Below, piece after piece: positions 2,997-34,366 of a stretch of DNA of 64,000 nt. Source of the DNA: Empedobacter falsenii (GTDB lineage Bacteria > Bacteroidota > Bacteroidia > Flavobacteriales > Weeksellaceae); NCBI RefSeq assembly GCF_013488205.1, contig NZ_CP040908.1, positions 905,876 to 969,875 on the forward strand. Direction: 5' to 3'. The first letter of the stretch is position 1. Every line of letters starts with the position of its first letter. Under the pieces are notes generated by a model. It was given only the letters and a program-made list of their open reading frames with translations, did no database searches and had not been told where the DNA came from. The translations under genes were made by a program, and so were the position numbers.

Positions 2997-5309
2997 ATGA
3001 AATTTTTACAATTAATTCTCATTTTGATTAGTTCTTTTGCTTTTGCACAAGAAAAATATTCGATTACAGGAAATATTTCATCAAAAAATGAGTCAAAAAC
3101 AATTCAAGCAAAAGTTATTTTACACGATGAATTTCAAAATGTTATTCAAACAATTGAAACTGAAAACTCTAAATTTAACTTTGAAAATTTAGAACAAAAA
3201 ATATATTCAATTTCAGTTATTTATGATAATAAAATTCAAGATGAAGAACCTTTTTATTTGAACGAAAATAAAACATTTCACTTAAATATTGATGAAACTG
3301 TACAAATTAATGAAGTTGTAATCAATGGAAAAAAGGAAACTTTCAAAATAGAAAATGGCAATTATAATATTGATGTAGCTAATTCAAATTTTAATAAACT
3401 TGCTACAACCAAAGAATTATTTTCAAAATTACCAAGCGTCATGTTGGGAGCAGATCAAGAAACATTGACAATTATTGGAAAAGGAAATCCTTTGTTGTAT
3501 TTGGACGATCAACAAGTTGATTTTTCTACCATTTCGAGTTTAGCAATTGAGGACATAAAATCGATTGAAATTATTAAAAATCCATCTGCAAAATATGAAG
3601 CAAATGGAAGATCTGTCGTAAAAATTAACCTTAAAAAAAGTAAAAAAGAAGGTTTAAAATTCTCTTTACAGGAAACATTATCGTTCAAAAGAAAGTTCAA
3701 TAATTATTTCAATTCGACTTTTCAAATTCGTAAAAACAAAAGTGAATTTAAATTGAATGCATCTTATAATCAACTAAATCCTTGGGAAGGAAATGGATTC
3801 GATTATCGAGTAAAAGATAAAAATATTCAGTCCAATTATTTCATAAAATCGCAAACAAAGCGTCCGCATTTTATTGTAAATACAAGCTTTTTTCAAGAAT
3901 TAAATGAATCTGGAGATTATCTTTCATTTGCTATTAATTCGAATTTCAGAAAAGATAAAGGTTTGATTGATACCAAAACAGAATATTCAGAAAACAATGA
4001 AAATCAATCTATTTTAACCTTAAATGATAATGAAAATCATCGAAATTTTGTGAATACCTTGATGAATTACAATAAAAATATTCAATCAATTGACGTAAGT
4101 ATTTTAACAGGTTTGCAATACACGATTTATAATACAGGAACGACATACGATTTTTACAATAAGATAAATGAAAATGATATCGAATACAATCAATCGCGCT
4201 ATCAAAAATATCGTCTTAAGGTTTTTGCAGGGAAATTTGATGTAGAGAAAAAGTTTGAATCTGATCAAAAAATTGAATTTGGAGGACGTTTTACACATGC
4301 AAAATCAGAAACAACTAATCAAACGTTTTTTTCTCAAAAATCATCAGAAGAATTTCTTTATAATTTCAAAGAGCTGAATCTTTCCGCTTATTTGCAATAC
4401 ACAAAAAATTATGAAAAATGGAATTATAAAGCCGGATTAAGAACAGAAGCAACTAATTCTAAAGGTTTTGATGAAATAAAACAACTTTCGGATATTGATA
4501 AAAAATACATTGATTGGTTTCCGAATGCAGAAATTAATTACACTTTTGAGAATAAAGATGCGTTGACAATTTATTACAAACGTACAATTGATAGACCGAA
4601 TTACAGCACCCTTTCTTCTGGGAATTTGTACGGAAGTCCTTATATCGAATACAGCGGAAATTTTAATATTTTACCTACTTACACCGATACGTTTTCTGCG
4701 AATTATTCATTGAAAAAATGGAACATGAATGTGACGTATTATCAAAGTAAAAATCCGATGAATTATACGTTGATTTATGATGATGTGAGAAATATTTCAA
4801 CATTTACAACGGTTAATTTTGAAAAAGAAAAAAATATTTCTGTTGGTTTAGATGTTCCGTTCGAATATAAATTTTGGTCAACACAAATTAGTTTATCTAT
4901 GATTTATAGTAAAATAATTGATAAAAAAGCTGTGCTTAAAAAATCTGTTCCGTATATCTATTTATACTCTAATCATAATTTCAAATTGGGAAAAGATTTT
5001 AATTTTATGCTTGATGGATATTGGCTAAGAAAACGAACAGAAGGAATTTATGATCGAAATTCTCAAGTTATCGTTAACCTTGGATTGACCAAATCATACA
5101 AAAACCTTGATTTTTCTATTCGTTTCAATGATTTATTTAAACAAATGAAATTTAGCGAAACATTGAATTATGATAAAATAAGTTCTAAAAACCTATTTTT
5201 AGTCGATTATCAAGAACTATCTGTTGGTGTTAAATATAATTTTGGCCGATTAAATAAAACCATCTCGAAAGAGAATAAAGTAAATGAAGAGGAAGGGAGA
5301 ATTAGGTAA
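2997..5309 (+). CDS. TonB-dependent receptor-like outer-membrane beta-barrel protein
   Basis: Signal peptide, then a carboxypeptidase-regulatory-like N-domain, a plug-like region and a long beta-barrel with a C-terminal aromatic residue. Confidence 0.7.
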   Translation: MKFLQLILILISSFAFAQEKYSITGNISSKNESKTIQAKVILHDEFQNVIQTIETENSKFNFENLEQKIYSISVIYDNKIQDEEPFYLNENKTFHLNIDETVQINEVVINGKKETFKIENGNYNIDVANSNFNKLATTKELFSKLPSVMLGADQETLTIIGKGNPLLYLDDQQVDFSTISSLAIEDIKSIEIIKNPSAKYEANGRSVVKINLKKSKKEGLKFSLQETLSFKRKFNNYFNSTFQIRKNKSEFKLNASYNQLNPWEGNGFDYRVKDKNIQSNYFIKSQTKRPHFIVNTSFFQELNESGDYLSFAINSNFRKDKGLIDTKTEYSENNENQSILTLNDNENHRNFVNTLMNYNKNIQSIDVSILTGLQYTIYNTGTTYDFYNKINENDIEYNQSRYQKYRLKVFAGKFDVEKKFESDQKIEFGGRFTHAKSETTNQTFFSQKSSEEFLYNFKELNLSAYLQYTKNYEKWNYKAGLRTEATNSKGFDEIKQLSDIDKKYIDWFPNAEINYTFENKDALTIYYKRTIDRPNYSTLSSGNLYGSPYIEYSGNFNILPTYTDTFSANYSLKKWNMNVTYYQSKNPMNYTLIYDDVRNISTFTTVNFEKEKNISVGLDVPFEYKFWSTQISLSMIYSKIIDKKAVLKKSVPYIYLYSNHNFKLGKDFNFMLDGYWLRKRTEGIYDRNSQVIVNLGLTKSYKNLDFSIRFNDLFKQMKFSETLNYDKISSKNLFLVDYQELSVGVKYNFGRLNKTISKENKVNEEEGRIR

Positions 5310-5370: not shown

Positions 5371-6042
5371 ATGTTTAAATTTATTCGTAAGGTTATACTT
5401 TATCTTTTTGTAGCTCATCTTGTATACATTGTTGTGTTAAAGTGGATTAATCCGCCGTTCACGATTACGCAAGTTCAGCAAGGTTTTGAACAAGGAAAAT
5501 TTAAGCGCGATTATATTTCCTATGACGAAATGGGACGAAATATAAAATTGGCTGTAATTGGTTCTGAAGATCAAAAATTTCCTGTGCACAATGGATTTGA
5601 TATGGATGGAATACAGGAAGCGATTGAAAAGAATAAAGAAGGTAAAAAACTTCGTGGAGGTTCTACGATTTCTCAACAAGTCGCGAAAAATGTGTTTTTG
5701 TGGCAAGGTCGTTCTTGGTTGAGAAAAGGATTAGAAGTTTATTTTACGTTTATGATCGAAAAAATTTGGGGCAAACAACGTATTTTAGAAATGTATCTGA
5801 ATACTTCTGAAATGGGAATTGGTGTTTTTGGTGTTGAAGCTGCTTCTGAATATTATTTCAATAAACCAGCTAAAGATTTAACCAAAAATGAAGCGGCTCG
5901 TATTGCAGCAGCTTTGCCATTGCCACGAAAATATAATGTGAATCCGCCTTCGTCTTTTATCAGTAGACGCGCCAGTCATATCGAGCGACAAATGCGAAAT
6001 ATACAAGGAAGCGCTGATTTGGAAAAGGTTTTAGGAGAATAA
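5371..6042 (+). CDS. mtgA: monofunctional biosynthetic peptidoglycan transglycosylase
   Basis: GT51 motifs: EDQKF, GGSTISQQVAKN, RKxxE, and an N-terminal TM anchor. Confidence 0.85.
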   Translation: MFKFIRKVILYLFVAHLVYIVVLKWINPPFTITQVQQGFEQGKFKRDYISYDEMGRNIKLAVIGSEDQKFPVHNGFDMDGIQEAIEKNKEGKKLRGGSTISQQVAKNVFLWQGRSWLRKGLEVYFTFMIEKIWGKQRILEMYLNTSEMGIGVFGVEAASEYYFNKPAKDLTKNEAARIAAALPLPRKYNVNPPSSFISRRASHIERQMRNIQGSADLEKVLGE

Positions 6043-11094: not shown

Positions 11095-11165
11095 AGACCC
11101 ATGGTGTAACGGTAGCACATCGGTTTTTGGTGCCGCTAGTTGGGGTTCGAATCCCTGTGGGTCTA
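11095..11165 (+). tRNA. tRNA-Gln (anticodon UUG), copy 1
   Basis: Hand-folded cloverleaf. 7-bp acceptor stem AGACCCA/TGGGTCT, U8, D-loop AACGGTA with A14 and G18G19, anticodon loop UUUUGGU (U33, UUG, G37), T-loop TTCGAAT. CCA is not encoded. Confidence 0.85.
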
Positions 11166-11175
11166 CAAAAGTCTT

Positions 11176-11207
11176 ATGCCTCGATAAGCAATTGTTGAGG
11201 CATTTTT
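11176..11207 (+). terminator. hairpin plus T-run after tRNA-Gln copy 1
   Basis: ATGCCTC-14 nt loop-GAGGCAT followed by TTTT. Confidence 0.5.
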
Positions 11208-11257
11208 ATCTAACTTAGTTAAGAGAAAAGTTGCAAAAATTGAAATAAAATTTAGTC

Positions 11258-11328
11258 AGACCCATGGTGTAACGGTAGCACATCGGTTTTTGGTGCCGCT
11301 AGTTGGGGTTCGAATCCCTGTGGGTCTA
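11258..11328 (+). tRNA. tRNA-Gln (UUG), copy 2, identical to copy 1
   Basis: Exact 71-nt repeat of copy 1. Confidence 0.85.
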
Positions 11329-11368
11329 CAATTTTTTCTTTTCAATTTTTAACATAATAATCATGGAC

Positions 11369-11439
11369 AGACCCATGGTGTAACGGTAGCACATCGGTTT
11401 TTGGTGCCGCTAGTTGGGGTTCGAATCCCTGTGGGTCTA
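11369..11439 (+). tRNA. tRNA-Gln (UUG), copy 3, identical to copy 1
   Basis: Exact 71-nt repeat of copy 1. Confidence 0.85.
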
Positions 11440-11447
11440 CAGATTTT

Positions 11448-28176: not shown

Positions 28177-28208
28177 AAATGCCTGAACAATTGTTCAGGC
28201 ATTTTTTT
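28177..28208. terminator. bidirectional terminator shared by hemF and rtcB
   Basis: AAATGCCTGAACAA-TTGTTCAGGCATTT followed by a T-run. Confidence 0.75.
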
Positions 28209-29652
28209 AATCTTCTCTCGATCCGTCATCGGCCATTCTGACCATTTTAGGTGTAAAAGTAGCCACAACATCTACTAAATCTTGTTGCGCAGCCATTACT
28301 TCGTGAATATCTTTATATGCCATTGGCGCTTCATCCTTTCCACCACCAATTAATGTAATTCCAAAATAATTCAAATAATCGTTTATCTTATTTTGAGATA
28401 ATGATTTAATCGCTTGTGTTCGGCTCATTTGTCGACCAGCTCCATGCGAAGCAGAATGAATCGAATTTTCTTCACCTTTTCCTCGAACCAAAAATCCTGG
28501 CGCAGTCATAGAACCTGGAATAATTCCCATTATATCTTTAGAAGCTGGCGTTGCACCTTTTCGATGAACAATGACTTCTTCGCCATTGTAAATTTCTTTC
28601 CAAGCAAAATTATGATGATTTTCTACTTTCGCTAAAACTTCAGCACCAATTGATTTTGCAATTTTTTGATGAATAATTTCGTGACAAGCTGAAGCATATT
28701 CACCCGCCAAATTCATCGCAATCCAATATTCTTGACCTTCGGCTGAATCTAAATCTAAATAAGCCAAATTCTGTGCTTTGTACGGAAGTTTACAAATTTC
28801 TTTTGCAATTTTTGTATAATGTCCAGCGATTGTAGCGCCAAAACCTCTCGATCCAGAGTGCGTTAGCAAAGCCAAATATGAACCTTTTTTGATGTTCAGT
28901 TTTTCATCATCTTCCTTGAAATCAATCAAACCAAATTCTACAAAATGATTTCCTCCACCAGAAGAACCCAATTGCGACCACGCTTTATCTTTTAAATTTT
29001 GAATAAATGAATTCGTCTCGAATTTTGCATCATCTAAAATCTGATGTTCAGCTTTGTATTGACCATGAAAACCATGTCCTGCACCAAATTTTGTATTTTT
29101 GATCAAAGTTTCTTTTAATGAATCGTGATGTTCAAAATAATGAGAAGCAGGTAAATCATAAATCGATAAAGCCATTCTACATCCAATATCAACGCCGACA
29201 CCATAAGGAATAATCGCATTTTTGGTTGCTAAAACTCCGCCAATTGGTAATCCATAACCTTGATGCGCATCAGGCATAATTGCGCCAGCAACGGTAACAG
29301 GAAGTTTCATGGCGACTTTCATTTGTTCTAAAGCGCCGTCCTCAATTTTTTCCGCACCATAAATTTTGAAATCGGTTGGATTTTCATTCAATTCAATCAA
29401 GTTTTCATCTTGATTTGGTAAATGAATTCCATCGATAAAGCCTTTTGCAAGCGTTTTGAAAATTTTATCTTCTAAAAAATCTTGTGGCGAAGAAAAAACT
29501 TGCGCATATTTATCAAGCATTTCGGCTTTTGTGTAACCATTTCTTTTTTTGTTGATTTTTAAGGCAATTCCTAAAATTTCGTTTTCAGGATAACCCAAGG
29601 CAATCAAATCGTTTCCATTGATCGGTTTATTTTGTTGTTCAGTTGTTTTCAT
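28207..29652 (-). CDS. rtcB: RtcB family RNA 3'-phosphate/2',3'-cyclic-phosphate--5'-OH ligase (481-aa archaeal/eukaryal-length form)
   Basis: Motifs MPDAHQGYG, GSSGGGNHF, NHHNF and SASHGAGR (metal, GTP and His-GMP sites). Its start overlaps the upstream gene by 14 nt. Confidence 0.95.
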   Translation of the reverse strand: MKTTEQQNKPINGNDLIALGYPENEILGIALKINKKRNGYTKAEMLDKYAQVFSSPQDFLEDKIFKTLAKGFIDGIHLPNQDENLIELNENPTDFKIYGAEKIEDGALEQMKVAMKLPVTVAGAIMPDAHQGYGLPIGGVLATKNAIIPYGVGVDIGCRMALSIYDLPASHYFEHHDSLKETLIKNTKFGAGHGFHGQYKAEHQILDDAKFETNSFIQNLKDKAWSQLGSSGGGNHFVEFGLIDFKEDDEKLNIKKGSYLALLTHSGSRGFGATIAGHYTKIAKEICKLPYKAQNLAYLDLDSAEGQEYWIAMNLAGEYASACHEIIHQKIAKSIGAEVLAKVENHHNFAWKEIYNGEEVIVHRKGATPASKDIMGIIPGSMTAPGFLVRGKGEENSIHSASHGAGRQMSRTQAIKSLSQNKINDYLNYFGITLIGGGKDEAPMAYKDIHEVMAAQQDLVDVVATFTPKMVRMADDGSRED

Positions 29653-30706
29653 ATAATTTGGTTCTAAGGTTGATTAAAAATTCTTCCATTTTCGAAGAGT
29701 TTATTTCGGTTGGAAGAAAATTTAGTTTAGATTTTTCTTCAATTTCTCGTTGTAAATTTTCAGCTTTTTCGATTACTTCTTCATAAGAAAAATCTCCGTT
29801 TTTTATCGCTAATAATTCGTCACGATCTTCTGTTCGTTTTACATTTAGGTTTCCTGTTTCCACTAATTCTTTCGCAACTTTTAACAAACGAATCGTGTGC
29901 ATCATATTTTTACTATCGTAATTTTTTTCATGCGCAATGTTTGTTGTGTAACGATCTTCATTTCGCAATTTCATCCAATCCCAATATTCTTTGTATTGCT
30001 TGCAATAAGTGGAATATTCATCTTTTTGGAAAATGAAATAGGCAATTGGTTTTTCATTTTTAGGAATTTCACTCAAACGAATATCATCATTATTTTTATC
30101 TTTTACGATTCCTTTATAATTCGATTTTTCGTTGTAATAAAGCGCAAATAAATCTTTCGAATGATTGATTTTACTTAGTCCGCAAAACGCTTGTTTGTAA
30201 GAATTTGAATTCATCCAATCAACAAAAGAAATGGTTTTGTTATCATCAATAATATAACAAAAATCAAGAACGGTTTTTCTGATTTCATCTATTGGATTTA
30301 GAAATTTCTTGTTCAATCCTTTTGCTTTTTTGATTTGACTCAAGGCGTATCCAACAAATGTTTTCTCAACTTCTGATGTGATAAACTCTTTATAATTTAA
30401 TTCATCTAACAAAGGCGATTTATACAGAACAAATTCTTCTGGAGTTGCTAGGATTTCTAAACAACTCGGATTATTTTTCAATAATAATTCAATGAATCGA
30501 CCAATTTCATAATATACAATATCATTGGTTTCGTTGCTCACTTGCGTTTGATATTCGAAACCATAAAATTCATTTTTAGGTAAATAAAAAATGCCACGAA
30601 TATCAGTGTCTGAATTTTTAGTTGCCAAATTATAGGCTTTGCTTCCGCTTATACATTCAAATAGAATTAAATTTTGACTTTTTAGATCTTCTATTGTTAG
30701 TTTCAT
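29639..30706 (-). CDS. Pol-beta superfamily nucleotidyltransferase (long paralog, 355 aa)
   Basis: N-terminal GS-x(9)-DxD motif (ISGSKAYNLATKNSDTDIRG). ATGA overlap with the upstream gene. Confidence 0.7.
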   Translation of the reverse strand: MKLTIEDLKSQNLILFECISGSKAYNLATKNSDTDIRGIFYLPKNEFYGFEYQTQVSNETNDIVYYEIGRFIELLLKNNPSCLEILATPEEFVLYKSPLLDELNYKEFITSEVEKTFVGYALSQIKKAKGLNKKFLNPIDEIRKTVLDFCYIIDDNKTISFVDWMNSNSYKQAFCGLSKINHSKDLFALYYNEKSNYKGIVKDKNNDDIRLSEIPKNEKPIAYFIFQKDEYSTYCKQYKEYWDWMKLRNEDRYTTNIAHEKNYDSKNMMHTIRLLKVAKELVETGNLNVKRTEDRDELLAIKNGDFSYEEVIEKAENLQREIEEKSKLNFLPTEINSSKMEEFLINLRTKLYENN

Positions 30707-31458
30707 TTTGTTACGGTTTTAATGAAAAATACATTGATTTTGTTTTTATCAAATTCAATTTTTGGTAATTTTTCGGTTTCGATTTTTAATTCATTTTTCA
30801 AATTAATTAACCAATCGAAAAGTTCATCATTTTTCGAAATTCTAAAACTTTCATCAACATTTGCTTTGATTTCAAGATATTTATCCACTCGGTTTTCGAT
30901 TGTTTTATCTCCGATTAAATGTTTTAATTTTTCAAATTCCATCGGAGGAATTGTTTTATTTTCTACAATCCATTTCGCTGAAAGAACCGAACGTAAAGTA
31001 TAAAACAAACTTTTGAGTTTAATTTCGTTTTGATGTTCCATTTCAATCAATCGCTTTGTTGTAATTCCCAAATAATGCATGGTAACTTTTTGAGAATTGA
31101 ATTGTGAAGCAGCTAAATTGAACAATTCTTTTTCGAAAATTTCATCAGAAATATAATGAATCGGAGATTGTAAATATTCGTTAATACTCGAATTTGATTT
31201 CAACATTAAGCGCAAAACTTTTTGAATATCCCAACCTTTAAAATCCAGTTCATCTATAATTTCTAAATCAATAAAATCATCAATTGGGTCAATTTTTAGA
31301 TAATCTTCAATTTTTCGTTTGTAAATAAATCGAACATCGTAATCGCTGTCAGTAGAAGGGAAGCCCCAAGCGCGGCTCCCAGATTCTATAGCAAAAAGAA
31401 TTTTGACGTTATATTTATCTTCTATTTCTTTTAATTTATTTATAATGATTGGTTTCAT
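30703..31458 (-). CDS. Pol-beta superfamily nucleotidyltransferase (short paralog, 251 aa; Nuc-transf-like)
   Basis: GS-x(9)-DxD motif (ESGSRAWGFPSTDSDYDVRF). ATGA overlaps at both ends. Confidence 0.7.
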   Translation of the reverse strand: MKPIIINKLKEIEDKYNVKILFAIESGSRAWGFPSTDSDYDVRFIYKRKIEDYLKIDPIDDFIDLEIIDELDFKGWDIQKVLRLMLKSNSSINEYLQSPIHYISDEIFEKELFNLAASQFNSQKVTMHYLGITTKRLIEMEHQNEIKLKSLFYTLRSVLSAKWIVENKTIPPMEFEKLKHLIGDKTIENRVDKYLEIKANVDESFRISKNDELFDWLINLKNELKIETEKLPKIEFDKNKINVFFIKTVTK

Positions 31459-32546
31459 TTCGTAAACATTGTTTTTAGTTCATTTAACACATTCGATCCG
31501 CCAGAAATTGAGATTTCTCCCACTTTATCAGCAATTTTTTCGATGTATTCCATTTCTTTCAATTTCCATAACGTTTCGTTTTCTTCCATCAATTTCGCAG
31601 TGTTCAACAAGCTTCTTGTCGAAGCAGTTTCCTCACGACGCGTAATCGAATTGGCTTGAGCCGTTTTTTCGGCAATCAAAACGCGGTTCATAATTTCTCT
31701 TATTTCTCCTGGAAGAATAATGTCTTTCATACCTGCGTCAATCAATTTTAGACCAATTTCTTGGAATTGAGCTTGATATTTTTGAATGATATAATTCGTT
31801 ACCGAATTTTTATCCGACATCAAATCATCAAAATTCATGTTTCCAATAAATTCTCTCAAACCTAATTGAATCGCTTGATAAATCATTTTTTCGAAATCTT
31901 TGTTCGATTGATAAGCGTTTAACAAATCAGTAATTTGATAATTTACCATAAAATTGATTCGCAATTGCGCTTTATCTTTTGTCAAAATTTCTTGTCCCGA
32001 AATTTCAATTGTTTGCGGACGCATATCAAAAGAAACCATCGAAATTTTTGTTTCGTTGTTGTAAAATTGGTATTCACCAGCTTTTAAAACCGAATCAAAT
32101 TCATTGTCTTTGAATAAAATTCCTTCGAAATATGGCGCAACAGAAATGATACGAATAGCTCCAGCTTTTCTCAAAATATCAATTTCTCTTTTTGTTAAAT
32201 TTTTAATTTCTTCAGTAGAATTCAACTCAAATTTTACAGCTTTTAATTGAGTTGAATTTTTCCAAATCATCACGTTTTTATTGTAAAATGAATTATAGAT
32301 TTGATTGTTTTTACATATAATTAACACTTCATTGTGTAATACTTCGATAAAATCTACCATCGATTTCAAAGTTTCATTTTCTAAAAACATTGTGTGGTAT
32401 TTTTCATCAATTATTTCGTTGATGTTTAATTTTTCGATGTTTTTATTGAATAAAATCCAATAGTTTCCTTTTGTGTAAACTTTTTCGATTTCGTTGTTTT
32501 TGATATAGATTCCAATTTCTTGGTTGTTAATTGCTAATTTTTTCAT
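31455..32546 (-). CDS. SPFH/band-7 (stomatin-like) domain protein, first gene of the rtcB operon
   Basis: SPFH-like core (QLRINFMVNYQITD ... AEKTAQANSITRREETAS) and a C-terminal coiled region. No TM helix is evident. Confidence 0.55.
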   Translation of the reverse strand: MKKLAINNQEIGIYIKNNEIEKVYTKGNYWILFNKNIEKLNINEIIDEKYHTMFLENETLKSMVDFIEVLHNEVLIICKNNQIYNSFYNKNVMIWKNSTQLKAVKFELNSTEEIKNLTKREIDILRKAGAIRIISVAPYFEGILFKDNEFDSVLKAGEYQFYNNETKISMVSFDMRPQTIEISGQEILTKDKAQLRINFMVNYQITDLLNAYQSNKDFEKMIYQAIQLGLREFIGNMNFDDLMSDKNSVTNYIIQKYQAQFQEIGLKLIDAGMKDIILPGEIREIMNRVLIAEKTAQANSITRREETASTRSLLNTAKLMEENETLWKLKEMEYIEKIADKVGEISISGGSNVLNELKTMFTK

Positions 32547-32867
32547 TTTATTATTTTTTTATAGGTTTTTACTATTTTATATTTCTCCTTTGTCGAAGAA
32601 TCTTTTTCTTAAAATTTTAATTAAAAAAGCTAAATCATTTTCCTTTTTCAAAACGGAATTTGAAGTTTGAGCAGCTTATTTTGATTTCTTGTTTTAATCA
32701 TTTCTTTCAAATCATTTTGACTTGATATTTTAGTTTAAACTTTAAATCAATCATCAACTAAAGTTTCAAATTCAGGTTTTAAACAAGTTTTTGATCTTAT
32801 TTCCAATTCATTTCTATGAAATAAACTCTCTATTCGAAAAGAAAACTTTTTAGCTTTTTTGTTTCCA

Positions 32868-33090
32868 ATGGTACCCTTTCGGGCGATAAAAACAGATTAA
32901 AAGTCTGATTTTAATGATTACTCTACCAACTGAGTTATTTCAGTTTCCTGAAAGTAGGAATCGAACCTACGACCCATCATTAATGATTGCTATACCGCTC
33001 AGCTATTTCAACCTCAGTTGAAAATGGGATTCGAACCCATGTGCATCATTGGGATTTTAATTATTCAGAATAGAAGTGATGAAACATTTT
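32868..33090 (-). ncRNA. candidate Y-RNA-like (YrlA-type) ncRNA carrying two tandem circularly permuted tRNA-like modules, upstream of the rtcB operon
   Basis: Minus-strand order in each module is T-arm, acceptor 3' strand, tetraloop, acceptor 5' strand, TA, D-arm, all closed by an AATGAT/ATCATT stem. T-loops are TTCGAAT and TTCGATT; D-loops contain GG. The 3' flank has a GCCC-GAAA-GGGT hairpin and ends in ACCA. Confidence 0.6.
32913..33050 (-). repeat. two tandem 69-nt units (32913-32981 and 32982-33050) forming the tRNA-like modules
   Basis: The units align end to end and show compensatory stem changes: TTTCAG/CTGAAA versus TTTCAAC/GTTGAAA, GTAGG/CCTAC versus ATGGG/CCCAT, ACTC/GAGT versus GCT/AGC. 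Confidence 0.7.
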
Positions 33091-33346
33091 CTACTACAAT
33101 GCTATACTGAAACATTTGTCAAGGAACAATTAAAATCGTTTGGTTGTTAAACCTTTGACAAAGTTGGAGTAGAAGTGTGCGAATGAATTGCGCAATAAAA
33201 TATTTTTTCAAAATAATTTATAAACTATTATGAATAGAGGGTTTTGTATTGAAAATATTTTGAATAAAAGTTGAAATAAAAATTTCTACGCAAATAGATT
33301 GCGTACTTTGATTTGAAATTTGTAGTATTGAACAAAGAAATCAACC

Positions 33347-34366
33347 ATGGCAACCAATAAAATTGCATTAATACGTTATCAAACGATCGATAAATGTCTT
33401 CAAAATCATTTTAGAAAATGGACATTAGAAGATTTGATAGAAAAAGTTTCGGAAGCATTGTATGAATATGAAGGAATAACTTCTGGTGTTTCGAAACGTA
33501 CAATTCAGGGCGATATACAAGTGATGCGCAGTGATAAATTGGGTTATAATGCGCCAATTGTTGTTCGAGAAAAAAAGTTTTATGAATACGAAGATCGTGA
33601 TTATTCGATTCATAATTCGCCTGTTTCGTCTGCTGATTTAGACAAAATGAAAGAAGTGATTTCGGTGATGAAACAATTGAATGGTTTTAATTATTTTGAT
33701 GATATGAACGAGATTATTACGCGTCTCGAAAATAATTTATCCAAACAAACTCATCAACAACCAAATTATATTCAGTTTGAGGAAAATCCTTTATTAAAAG
33801 GTTTGGAGCATTTGAATCGGTTGTATCAAGCAATTGTGAAGAAGCAACCTTTGTTGATTTCGTATCAATCATTCAAGGCAAAAAATCAAGAGCCAAAACA
33901 ACAAGTTTATTATCCGTATTTGTTGAAAGAATATCGTAATCGTTGGTTTTTATTGGCAAAATCGAGAAAAGATAAAAATTTGTATACGTTGGCTTTGGAC
34001 AGAATAGTTGAATTTTATGAGTTGGCAAATGAACCTTTTGTGGATGAGCAAGAGATTAATTTTGATACGTATTACAACAATGCGATTGGTGTAACGAAAA
34101 GTGTGAAAGAAAGAGAGCAACGTGTTGTTTTTCGTGTGAATAAAAAATTGGCGCCTTATGTGGTGACAAAACCAATTCATGCGACGCAAAAAGTATTGGA
34201 AGTGACGGATGAAGGAACTTTATTTTCGATAGAAGTTGTACATAATTTTGAGTTGGAACGAGAGCTTTTAGGATTTGGAGAAGAAATAGAAGTTCTTGCG
34301 CCGAGATTAGTGAAAAAAAGAATTAAAACACGATTAGAAAAAGCATTAGAAAAATATAAAAAATAG
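33347..34366 (+). CDS. HTH plus WYL-domain transcriptional regulator, divergent from the rtcB operon
   Basis: N-terminal wHTH followed by a WYL motif region (YYPYLLKEYRNRWFLLAKSR ... YTLALDRIV) and a C-terminal WCX-like extension. 339 aa. Confidence 0.8.
   Translation: MATNKIALIRYQTIDKCLQNHFRKWTLEDLIEKVSEALYEYEGITSGVSKRTIQGDIQVMRSDKLGYNAPIVVREKKFYEYEDRDYSIHNSPVSSADLDKMKEVISVMKQLNGFNYFDDMNEIITRLENNLSKQTHQQPNYIQFEENPLLKGLEHLNRLYQAIVKKQPLLISYQSFKAKNQEPKQQVYYPYLLKEYRNRWFLLAKSRKDKNLYTLALDRIVEFYELANEPFVDEQEINFDTYYNNAIGVTKSVKEREQRVVFRVNKKLAPYVVTKPIHATQKVLEVTDEGTLFSIEVVHNFELERELLGFGEEIEVLAPRLVKKRIKTRLEKALEKYKK

Follow-up and report, generated by a model that had tools for sequence, protein, structure and literature searches.

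What is encoded in the intergenic space ahead of the RNA-repair operon of Empedobacter falsenii? We addressed this question in a 64,000-nt stretch of contig NZ_CP040908.1 (RefSeq assembly GCF_013488205.1, positions 905,876 to 969,875 of the forward strand), referred to below as the window, with coordinates counted from its first nucleotide. A divergent WYL-WCX gene and a Band-7/SPFH-RlaP-RlaP-RtcB operon (assigned by Pfam) flank a leader whose minus strand carries, at 33050-32982 and 32981-32913, two abutting 69-nt circularly permuted tRNA-like modules. The original prediction, made from the sequence before any database search, had proposed two such units with a common order of elements at the head of an rtcB operon; the sequence confirms the units, and the Pfam assignments confirm their position. 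Comparative sequence analysis indicates that the modules are the core of a conserved and widespread RNA, a Ro-free cousin of the bacterial Y RNAs. This RNA is nearly always present upstream of the Band-7 clade found here.

Permuted tRNA-like modules at the head of the operon

Each module starts with AATGAT and a variable loop of 4-5 nt, continues with a 5-bp T-stem around TTCGAAT or TTCGATT and an acceptor helix of 7 or 6 bp capped by TGAG or GAAA, and ends with TA, a D-arm (in both units a 4-bp stem with GG in the loop), A and ATCATT. The resulting topology is T-arm, tetraloop-closed acceptor and D-arm, with the 5' and 3' ends exiting through the anticodon stem. At the DNA level unit 1 reads AATGAT-GCAC-ATGGG-TTCGAAT-CCCAT-TTTCAAC-TGAG-GTTGAAA-TA-GCTG-AGCGGTA-TAGC-A-ATCATT and unit 2 reads AATGAT-GGGTC-GTAGG-TTCGATT-CCTAC-TTTCAG-GAAA-CTGAAA-TA-ACTC-AGTTGGTA-GAGT-A-ATCATT. 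As RNA, both have the closing stem AAUGAU/AUCAUU; in unit 1 it encloses a 4-nt variable loop, the T-arm AUGGG-UUCGAAU-CCCAU, the acceptor hairpin UUUCAAC-UGAG-GUUGAAA and the D-arm GCUG-AGCGGUA-UAGC, and in unit 2 the variable loop GGGUC, the T-arm GUAGG-UUCGAUU-CCUAC, the acceptor hairpin UUUCAG-GAAA-CUGAAA and the D-arm ACUC-AGUUGGUA-GAGU. The nucleotides that make the tertiary contacts of the tRNA elbow and core (U8, A14, G15/C48, G18G19, T54-Psi55-C56 and A58) are retained in both units, and for unit 2 the minimum-free-energy prediction reproduces the permuted cloverleaf exactly. Folding-energy z-scores of −0.8 to −2.4 are not significant and too weak to serve as evidence, so the support for the RNA is comparative.

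The two units themselves provide a first comparison. They differ at about 20 columns. Ten of these combine into five double compensatory changes, of which the T-stem and the D-stem have two each and the acceptor stem one, and no change breaks a pair. The initial claim that every helix differs between the copies yet stays complementary therefore holds for the T, acceptor and D helices and fails for the closing helix AATGAT/ATCATT, which is the same in both units and thus shows no covariation between them.

Homologous modules extend this pattern well beyond the window. Across 26 modules from syntenic loci and more distant Bacteroidota loci, 95.3% of cells are paired and 20 of the 22 pairs covary; when the structure was slid by 1-3 columns over the same modules, pairing fell to 35-48%. 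An independent metagenome sample of 148 distinct modules gave 90.6% of cells paired over the four helices and covariation at 21 of the 22 pairs. The loop-closed acceptor hairpin is paired in 96% (26 modules) and 89% (148 modules) of cases and all seven of its pairs covary, which is direct evidence for the permuted topology that had been proposed from the two units alone.

These comparisons bear directly on the idea that the region consists of two truncated tRNA pseudogenes, left functionless by an integrase insertion or by decay. The pieces do resemble tRNA, and ARAGORN places a (spurious) 'tRNA-Pyl' at 33016-33100. The five compensatory versus zero disruptive changes between the units speak against such an origin, as do the strong covariation over 148 modules, a position upstream of Band-7 that is fixed in 62 of 64 independent loci, and flanks that contain no integrase but housekeeping genes whose synteny is conserved. 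The element is kept at the syntenic site in different genera and phyla, which instead upholds the view, already taken in the original prediction, that this is a functional RNA and not tRNA debris; we give decay a negligible probability.

A covariance model built from 22 homologous modules of other genomes, with the window sequence excluded (R2), separates the modules from ordinary tRNA genes. With this model unit 2 reaches 83.7 bits (E 7e-22) and unit 1 reaches 65.1 bits (E 3e-16), compared with 22 bits (E 0.0028) for the window's genuine tRNA-Gln array and at most 46 bits (E 2.2e-10 or weaker) for true tandem tRNA genes in other loci. Tandem tRNA genes were flagged as a false-positive class by Chen et al. 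2014 (PMC4201824), and matches of models R1 and R2 in L065, L044, parts of L141, L123 and others (comparison loci are denoted by L numbers) were discarded as true tandem tRNA genes, not modules.

The sole Rfam call at gathering threshold is a 'tRNA' at 33012-32946 (43.2 bits). It was rejected as a canonical tRNA gene: it is a chimera of the 5' half of unit 1 and the 3' half of unit 2, it has 1 nt where the anticodon loop should be, and the acceptor stems are capped by GAAA and UGAG. The same junction-spanning reading, together with the order 3' half, linker, 5' half and the adjacent RtcB, could also be taken to indicate a genuine permuted or split tRNA gene whose transcript RtcB would rejoin, after cutting, to give a functional tRNA, recalling the Cyanidioschyzon pathway. 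The circularly permuted tRNA genes of Cyanidioschyzon merolae, reported by Soma and colleagues in 2007, are said to need an RtcB-type ligase for maturation. Those genes share the order of halves with our modules, but what they produce are genuine tRNAs, with an anticodon loop and a processed acceptor end, whereas the window modules lack the loop and have acceptor stems closed by tetraloops. No anticodon loop lies between the closing strands (1 nt separates ATCATT and ATGAT in the Rfam alignment), the 4-nt acceptor loops have neither discriminator nor CCA and leave no space for RNase P/Z processing, and the acceptor stem of unit 2 has 6 bp.

Comparison of module number decides further against a tRNA gene. 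Some sister species have a single module, and a junction-spanning normal tRNA therefore cannot form there. Cross-pairing into a normal acceptor stem reaches only 3-4 of 6 pairs in most two-module homologues (L012, L020, L036, L037 and L090) and 5 of 6 in L025 and L087, compared with 5-7 pairs within modules. In the window the 5' acceptor strand of unit 1 and the 3' strand of unit 2 can pair at 6 of 7 positions, which would give a tRNA-like center of normal topology; this domain-swapped fold is feasible here because the two acceptor helices are alike. We consider a permuted tRNA gene very improbable, and both it and tRNA debris are effectively excluded.

By joining the 5' domain described below with the first T-arm, ARAGORN produces false tRNAs ('tRNA-Pyl cta', 'tRNA-Asn att') at 33016-33100 (minus strand) in the window, at 3503-3590 in L086 and at 3270-3359 in L088. 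The Rfam tRNA model calls the junction-spanning chimera in L087, L012 and L075 as well as in the window. Mislabelling of these loci by annotation pipelines is likely.

The leader RNA and its distribution

The modules lie within a leader of about 0.55 kb that comprises a 5' domain, the modules, an anticodon-like hairpin, a GNRA hairpin and a 240-nt 3' domain (Table 1). In an alignment of nine Weeksellaceae leaders, conservation is unbroken from about 33170 to 32621, and of the 91 pairs that RNAalifold predicts, 23 show compensatory changes. This larger structured leader goes beyond what had been seen in the window at the outset, as do the tRNA-Lys-type hairpin, the single-module sister species and the fact that the class had been predicted before. 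Rfam 15 holds no family for the 5' domain, for the 3' domain or for this RNA class.

Table 1. Parts of the leader RNA and flanking genes, in window coordinates
Feature	Position	Strand	Description	Basis
5' domain	33051..33166	-	GGUU/AACC hairpin and long-range helix GAUUUUA/UAAAAUC	alignment, RNAalifold
Unit 1	32982..33050	-	69-nt permuted tRNA-like module; lineage-specific extra copy	sequence, R2 model, alignment
Unit 2	32913..32981	-	69-nt permuted tRNA-like module; conserved copy	sequence, Rfam YrlA, R2 model
Anticodon-arm-like hairpin	32893..32907	-	CAGA-CUUUUAA-UCUG, tRNA-Lys type	alignment
GNRA hairpin	32884-32873	-	GCCC-GAAA-GGGU, then ACCA (32872-32869)	sequence
3' domain	32621..32861	-	closed by AAAAAAGCUAAA (32860-32849) / UUUAGCUUUUUU (32634-32623)	RNAalifold
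Band-7/SPFH protein	31455..32546	-	363 aa, first operon gene	PF01145, E 2.9e-24
RlaP nucleotidyltransferase	30703..31458	-	251 aa	PF10127, E 6e-68
Second RlaP-family protein	29639..30706	-	355 aa	PF10127, E 7.7e-22, N-terminal half only
RtcB RNA ligase	28207..29652	-	481 aa	PF01139, E 7.7e-84
WYL-WCX regulator gene	33347..34366	+	339 aa, divergent	Pfam WYL and WCX, PADLOC WYL models

The 5' domain is specific to Band-7 loci. Its long-range helix encloses two hairpins, P1 (ACA-A-AUG/CAUUGU, with loop UUUCAGUAUAG) and P2 (AGUAGAA/UUCUAUU), the core being ordered as P1 with loop GUUUCUGUAUAGC, AGUA, P2 and UAUNCUG, and both helices covary over 14 Bacteroidota loci. An nhmmer profile of this domain, which matches the window at 33122-33065, recognizes Band-7 loci only, including all Bacteroidota Band-7 loci from the genomes compared at that stage, and none of the TROVE loci. 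In the metagenome it is present in 43 of 80 Band-7 loci, always immediately upstream of the first module. The sequence CAACTTTG (33166-33159) had been considered as a Bacteroidetes −7 box; this reading was withdrawn because Flavobacterium-type homologues have a similar CAACTTGACTTGAAGGTTT internal to the RNA, at a point downstream of its 5' core.

Downstream of the modules, the 7-nt loop of the anticodon-arm-like hairpin, CUUUUAA, is that of the tRNA-Lys(UUU) anticodon loop, the same loop being present in every genuine tRNA-Lys(UUU) gene examined in related loci. In nine relatives the hairpin stem is invariant and the loop always has 7 nt with U at position 2. Among wider relatives the stem covaries (UGGA/UCCA, UAGU/ACUA, CUACA/UGUAG) and the loops fit YU-NNN, with middle triplets that vary across lineages (UUU 9, CAA 6, GUU 6, UAG 4 and others).

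The GNRA hairpin followed by ACCA, which had been pointed out in the 3' flank, is present (32884-32869). The hairpin at this position is retained in relatives, with GAAA, GCAA or UUCG loops, and ACCA in close relatives only: (A)CCA is kept in L081, L082, L087 and L089, L086 has CCCA, and the motif is missing in L088 and L084. This narrow conservation led us to reject the idea that ACCA imitates the 3' end of a tRNA. An outer helix may include it, as CAUUGG (32870-32865) is able to pair with CCAAUG (33052-33047); this helix is not consistently conserved, and the candidates (CCAAUG/CAUUGG in the window, UCCAGCGG/CCAUUGGA in L081, AUAAAUC/GAUUUAU in L084) shift register between genomes, so that it is not established. 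RNAalifold also proposed that the variable loop GGGU pairs with GCCC in the GNRA hairpin, which was judged spurious.

The 3' domain has helices with compensatory changes, such as GCUGAAA/UUUCAGC in L086 (RNAalifold), and is followed, about 75 nt ahead of the start codon of Band-7, by a terminator-like U-run. Its nhmmer profile matches Weeksellaceae loci only, and the domain was not found by sequence profile outside this family. Such an arrangement raises the possibility that the leader acts in cis: it would control read-through into Band-7-RlaP-RtcB, with the AAAAAAGCUAAA/UUUAGCUUUUUU helix and the U-run as a conditional terminator and the modules as protein- or RNA-binding sensors, not as a trans-acting cofactor. 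In favor of this, the regulator gene and the first open reading frame have the RNA directly between them and no second promoter is obvious, the helix that closes the 3' domain covaries and has the U-run after it, and a second, upstream copy of AAAAUAAGCU could compete for the same 3' strand. However, the 3' domain is limited to Weeksellaceae, whereas the modules and the 5' domain are family-wide; Ro-type sister operons have discrete Y RNAs as equivalents (Chen et al. 2014, PMC4201824); and a simple terminator scan makes no call at this site. On this balance we think a purely cis-acting leader quite unlikely.

The leader is fixed in its own lineage and shared well beyond it. The 800-nt intergenic region recurs in 10 other assemblies, all with the identical Band-7 protein; wherever the sequence can be read there are 0-1 differences, and unit 1 is identical in all ten. 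The tandem is therefore no assembly artefact but real and fixed in this lineage. The same arrangement, with a leader of some 700 nt between a WYL-WCX gene and Band-7-RlaP-RlaP-RtcB, is also found in E. falsenii, E. brevis, Chishuiella, Faecalibacter, a Flavobacterium and metagenomic relatives. In the window the RNA ends about 75-370 nt ahead of the Band-7 open reading frame. RlaP homologues at 88-100% identity are labelled Empedobacter.

Within this set the two units differ in their history. Unit 1 is absent from the compared E. falsenii and E. brevis loci, and the closest sister species (L081, L082) have one module, orthologous to unit 2 at 84-86% identity, relative to which unit 1 appears in the alignment as an insertion 5' of unit 2. 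The identity of unit 2 to the modules of L081, L082, L086, L088 and L089 is 82-86%, and the nearest relative of unit 1 is unit 2 of the same genome (72%). Chishuiella L087 has a tandem of its own, the two closing stems of which (TGTAA/TTACA) match each other, and its congener has one module.

An independent set of metagenomic Band-7 loci, of which the 64 with at least 700 nt of upstream sequence were counted, shows how general the association is: 62 of them have a module within 1 kb upstream of Band-7 on the same strand. In 38 of those 62 there is an adjacent second match, and in 13 more a T-arm directly follows the single match, so two modules are the rule in the wider Band-7 family. The typical second module is permuted elsewhere, with a T-arm, a loop-closed acceptor, a D-arm and a complete anticodon arm (e.g., CUACA-CUUUUAA-UGUAG), and the layout of the window is therefore a lineage-specific variant, consisting of two modules of the first type and a detached Lys-type anticodon hairpin. 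The extra unit in this Empedobacter lineage restores the two-module layout usual in the wider family.

Genome-sampled RlaP loci lead to a similar picture. Nine have this Band-7 clade, and in seven of these a module lies upstream; one of the seven is betaproteobacterial and has a tRNA-like RNA of normal topology with a GAAA-capped anticodon stem and an extra T-arm. The other two are enterobacterial and keep only the T-arm, within a GGTGAT/ATCACC helix. T-arm-only tRNA 'minihelices' of this kind lie upstream of Band-7-RtcB-RlaP in Morganella (L047, 3390-3445) and Providencia (L058, 3325-3385) and are preceded by GGUGCAGA...UCUGUAUUCYG, reminiscent of the Bacteroidota 5' core.

Relation to Y RNAs and possible roles

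The resemblance to the tRNA-like domain of YrlA that was noted at the outset is borne out as a partial match. At relaxed threshold the Rfam YrlA model (RF02553) aligns with unit 2 at 32915-32978 (minus strand; 36.1 bits, E 3e-6) over positions 23-86 of its 114, that is, over the tRNA-like domain only, and the alignment covers exactly the helices of the YrlA effector module (T-arm, loop-closed acceptor and D-arm). No match in the window reaches the gathering score of 69 bits, and model positions 1-22 and 87-114, the Ro60-binding stem formed by the 5' and 3' ends, are unmatched in the window RNA. Lacking this stem and scoring under the gathering threshold, the window RNA falls outside YrlA as strictly defined. 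For YrlA, Chen et al. 2014 (PMC4201824) used the criterion of a Ro60/Rsr (TROVE) gene no more than about 4 kb away; the window RNA has no such neighbor, and a tblastn search with the TROVE protein of L091 as query (E < 1e-5) finds no TROVE/Ro gene in the whole 64 kb, in agreement with the absence of Ro/Rsr reported earlier. The RNA is thus like YrlA (RF02553; PMC4201824; 10.1101/312249) in its circularly permuted tRNA-like module and in being encoded alongside RtcB RNA-repair genes, and unlike it in having neither a Ro60-binding stem nor a Ro/TROVE gene in the window, and in having its modules in tandem, with a 5' domain specific to Band-7 on one side and an anticodon-like hairpin on the other.

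Loci that do contain TROVE genes help place this difference. In L076 and L078 a TROVE gene, a YrlA-type RNA and RtcB occur together, the YrlA of L076 (69.8 bits) lying between TROVE and RtcB. In L091 the slot between the WYL gene and two RlaP genes is filled by a TROVE gene and a Y-RNA-like repeat array (3686-4662) of four or five repeats, each with TGTCGTAGAAAAGAGTTACTTCG at its start and GTCTTTTTTCG at its end; the permuted module is present in two of them and none reaches the Rfam YrlA gathering score. The Y RNAs of these three loci share the module, in an otherwise similar setting of WYL, RlaP or ligase genes.

An RNA of this kind had been anticipated. As relayed in 10.1101/312249, Burroughs and Aravind in 2016 predicted a 'band 7-associated tRNA' beside Band-7 and RtcB, noted that YrlA occasionally adjoins Band-7, and proposed such RNAs as repair cofactors; that account also gives the class as proposed to be interchangeable with Ro plus YrlA and as still unvalidated in 2018. 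Our literature search found no later study of a Band-7-associated tRNA-like RNA. The window has a non-coding tRNA-like RNA adjoining a Band-7/SPFH gene in an RtcB repair operon and so matches the 2016 description, in its relayed form, exactly. In that second-hand description, the only one available for comparison, the class is said to be 'strongly resembling an authentic tRNA', whereas the family of the window has permuted modules, loop-closed acceptors, usually two modules per RNA, and a 5' domain. Because the class was predicted in 2016, the element is not categorically new and is better described as a Band-7-associated tRNA-like RNA variant.

A second point of reference is the Salmonella rsr-yrlBA-rtcBA operon, where RtcR is activated by cyclic-phosphate-terminated 5' tRNA halves (Hughes et al. 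2020, PMC7790460). Both are RNA-repair operons with their own tRNA-like non-coding RNAs, and the Salmonella operon is likewise controlled by a regulator with a nucleic-acid-sensing domain. The window differs in having WYL-WCX instead of a CARF/sigma-54 activator, Band-7 instead of Ro60, and two RlaP nucleotidyltransferases instead of the RtcA cyclase.

Taken together, these comparisons make it on balance probable that the leader contains a conserved structured non-coding RNA that is the Band-7-associated counterpart of YrlA and serves as a tRNA-shaped cofactor or handle for the repair complex. The RNA would be co-transcribed with the operon from the divergent promoter region under WYL control. 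Its 5' domain would anchor it to the soluble Band-7 protein, and the tRNA-shaped modules could act as handles or mimics that recruit or position RlaP and RtcB, so that Band-7 and its RNA would form an analogue of Ro-YrlA, in parallel with the work proposed for YrlA on Ro60. The original prediction had suggested a different protein partner in place of Ro, should this be a Y-RNA relative, and the Band-7/SPFH protein encoded immediately downstream is the obvious candidate, this being the same pairing that Burroughs and Aravind are described as having predicted in 2016 (10.1101/312249).

Several points weigh against this proposal. The near-identical closing and acceptor helices of the two window units permit the domain-swapped fold, and the Rfam tRNA model accepts its junction-spanning reading (33012-32946) at 43.2 bits. 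The U-run after the 3' domain could equally indicate a cis-regulatory leader. Transcription of the RNA and its contact with protein are things we infer from sequence. A sigma-70 promoter/terminator scan picked up only the TACGCAA-N5-TTGCGTA palindrome, such a scan being uninformative for Bacteroidota, and the N-terminal region of the Band-7 protein shows no recognized RNA-binding domain. Finally, an intact anticodon-like loop has no obvious role if the RNA is purely a scaffold.

This last point is the starting place for a different proposal, namely that a tRNA body with an exposed anticodon-loop mimic baits anticodon nucleases. Cleavage would leave 2',3'-cyclic-phosphate and 5'-OH ends, and the RNA could then act in at least one of three ways: by soaking up the toxin, as a ligand that switches WYL-WCX and induces the operon, or by being resealed by RlaP and RtcB, which would reset the sensor. 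The anticodon-arm mimic keeps its shape, a 7-nt loop with Y at position 1 and U at position 2, while its triplet varies, and CUUUUAA is the loop of genuine tRNA-Lys genes. RtcR provides a precedent for sensing 5' tRNA halves that end in a cyclic phosphate (PMC7790460), and RlaP, which adds 1-2 NMP to the 3'-OH ends of damaged RNA, prefers nicked-tRNA mimics (PMC12776372).

The company of tRNA genes around Band-7 loci also agrees with such a decoy. Genuine tRNA genes occur in 28 of 80 metagenomic Band-7 loci and arrays of 3-23 in 14 of the 80, with 114 of 114 tRNAs on the operon strand; a few of the ARAGORN calls in these arrays may be chimeras on tRNA-like modules. The commonest array tRNAs are Phe(GAA) (17), Lys(UUU) (10), Asn (9), Asp (9), Arg(ACG) (7), Gln (7) and Tyr (7), a list that includes several classic targets of anticodon nucleases, and the arrays may be spare-tRNA sets tied to the repair system. 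Examples among L102-L181 are L141 (815-1912 and 3983-5200), L165 (228-1748), L123 (701-1507) and L163 (194-771).

Against a sentinel or decoy, modules of the first type, including both window units, have no anticodon loop at all, and the window hairpin has a stem of only 4 bp, separated from the tRNA body by a closing strand and a linker. Most of the WYL ligands described to date are single-stranded DNA or RNA and not tRNA halves. The proposal is also purely inferential, and we regard it as rather unlikely. In its most integrated version, a built-in sentinel tRNA whose cut form is both the WYL-WCX inducer and the substrate that RlaP and RtcB reseal, it seems doubtful. If a sentinel were nevertheless encoded here, it would combine the sensing of RNA damage with a decoy function in one self-contained system, the changing 'anticodon' would be the trace of an arms race with toxins that target tRNA, and the neighboring spare tRNA arrays would be part of the same counter-defence island.

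The significance of the locus lies in its tractability. The tRNA-like module of bacterial Y RNAs occurs here in a Ro-free version in a compact operon, and since RlaP and RtcB have defined activities on broken tRNAs, the question of what the Y-RNA module does becomes directly testable. The loose 2016 prediction is now a defined family, in which the RNA combines a 5' domain with one or two permuted tRNA bodies and an anticodon-arm mimic, its linkage to a soluble Band-7 protein is near-obligate, and arrays of tRNA genes are frequent neighbors. This family could enter Rfam, which would stop pseudo-tRNA calls at such sites.

Regulator, operon and other loci

The divergent WYL-WCX arrangement is present in all syntenic loci, and the protein is presumed to regulate the RNA and the operon. 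A perfect palindrome, TACGCAA-TCTAT-TTGCGTA (33287-33305), lies immediately upstream of the WYL-WCX gene, and a second element, TTGCGCAA-N-TTCGCA (33188-33195), lies closer to the RNA. Both are conserved in all syntenic relatives and are candidate WYL-WCX operators.

No membrane segment is predicted in the Band-7 protein (maximum 19-residue Kyte-Doolittle mean 1.2), and none of the four operon proteins matched a known defense system in PADLOC. The RlaP genes are less constant than the rest of the operon. Among assemblies with an identical Band-7 protein and leader, represented by L096 (3593-3610) and L099 (3435-4206), one lacks both RlaP genes and has Band-7 followed directly by RtcB, and another has the first RlaP split into two open reading frames; RlaP therefore appears dispensable or decaying in some strains.

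Several further tRNA-like or non-coding elements were seen in passing. Three identical tandem tRNA-Gln(UUG) genes lie in the window at 11095-11440 (plus strand), on the other strand from the leader RNA and 21 kb away, and are apparently unrelated to it. Chryseobacterium RlaP/RtcB/WYL loci, in which no Band-7 homologue was detected, have a tRNA-like RNA of normal topology (L056, about 1230-1370; L057, 602-711; L061, 3509-3618) that scores 48-50 bits with the Rfam tRNA model, has a ~45-nt insert in place of the anticodon loop, and is followed by several repeats of a ~45-nt motif (ACTTTTCGC...GGCAAAGNNAGTTCCTA). Chishuiella loci have a 110-aa open reading frame with no Pfam match on the opposite strand between the RlaP genes (L084, 5763-6095; L085, 5760-6092; L087, 5966-6298). 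L087 additionally contains two matches to the Flavo-1 RNA (RF01705), at 1852-1923 and 5872-5940.

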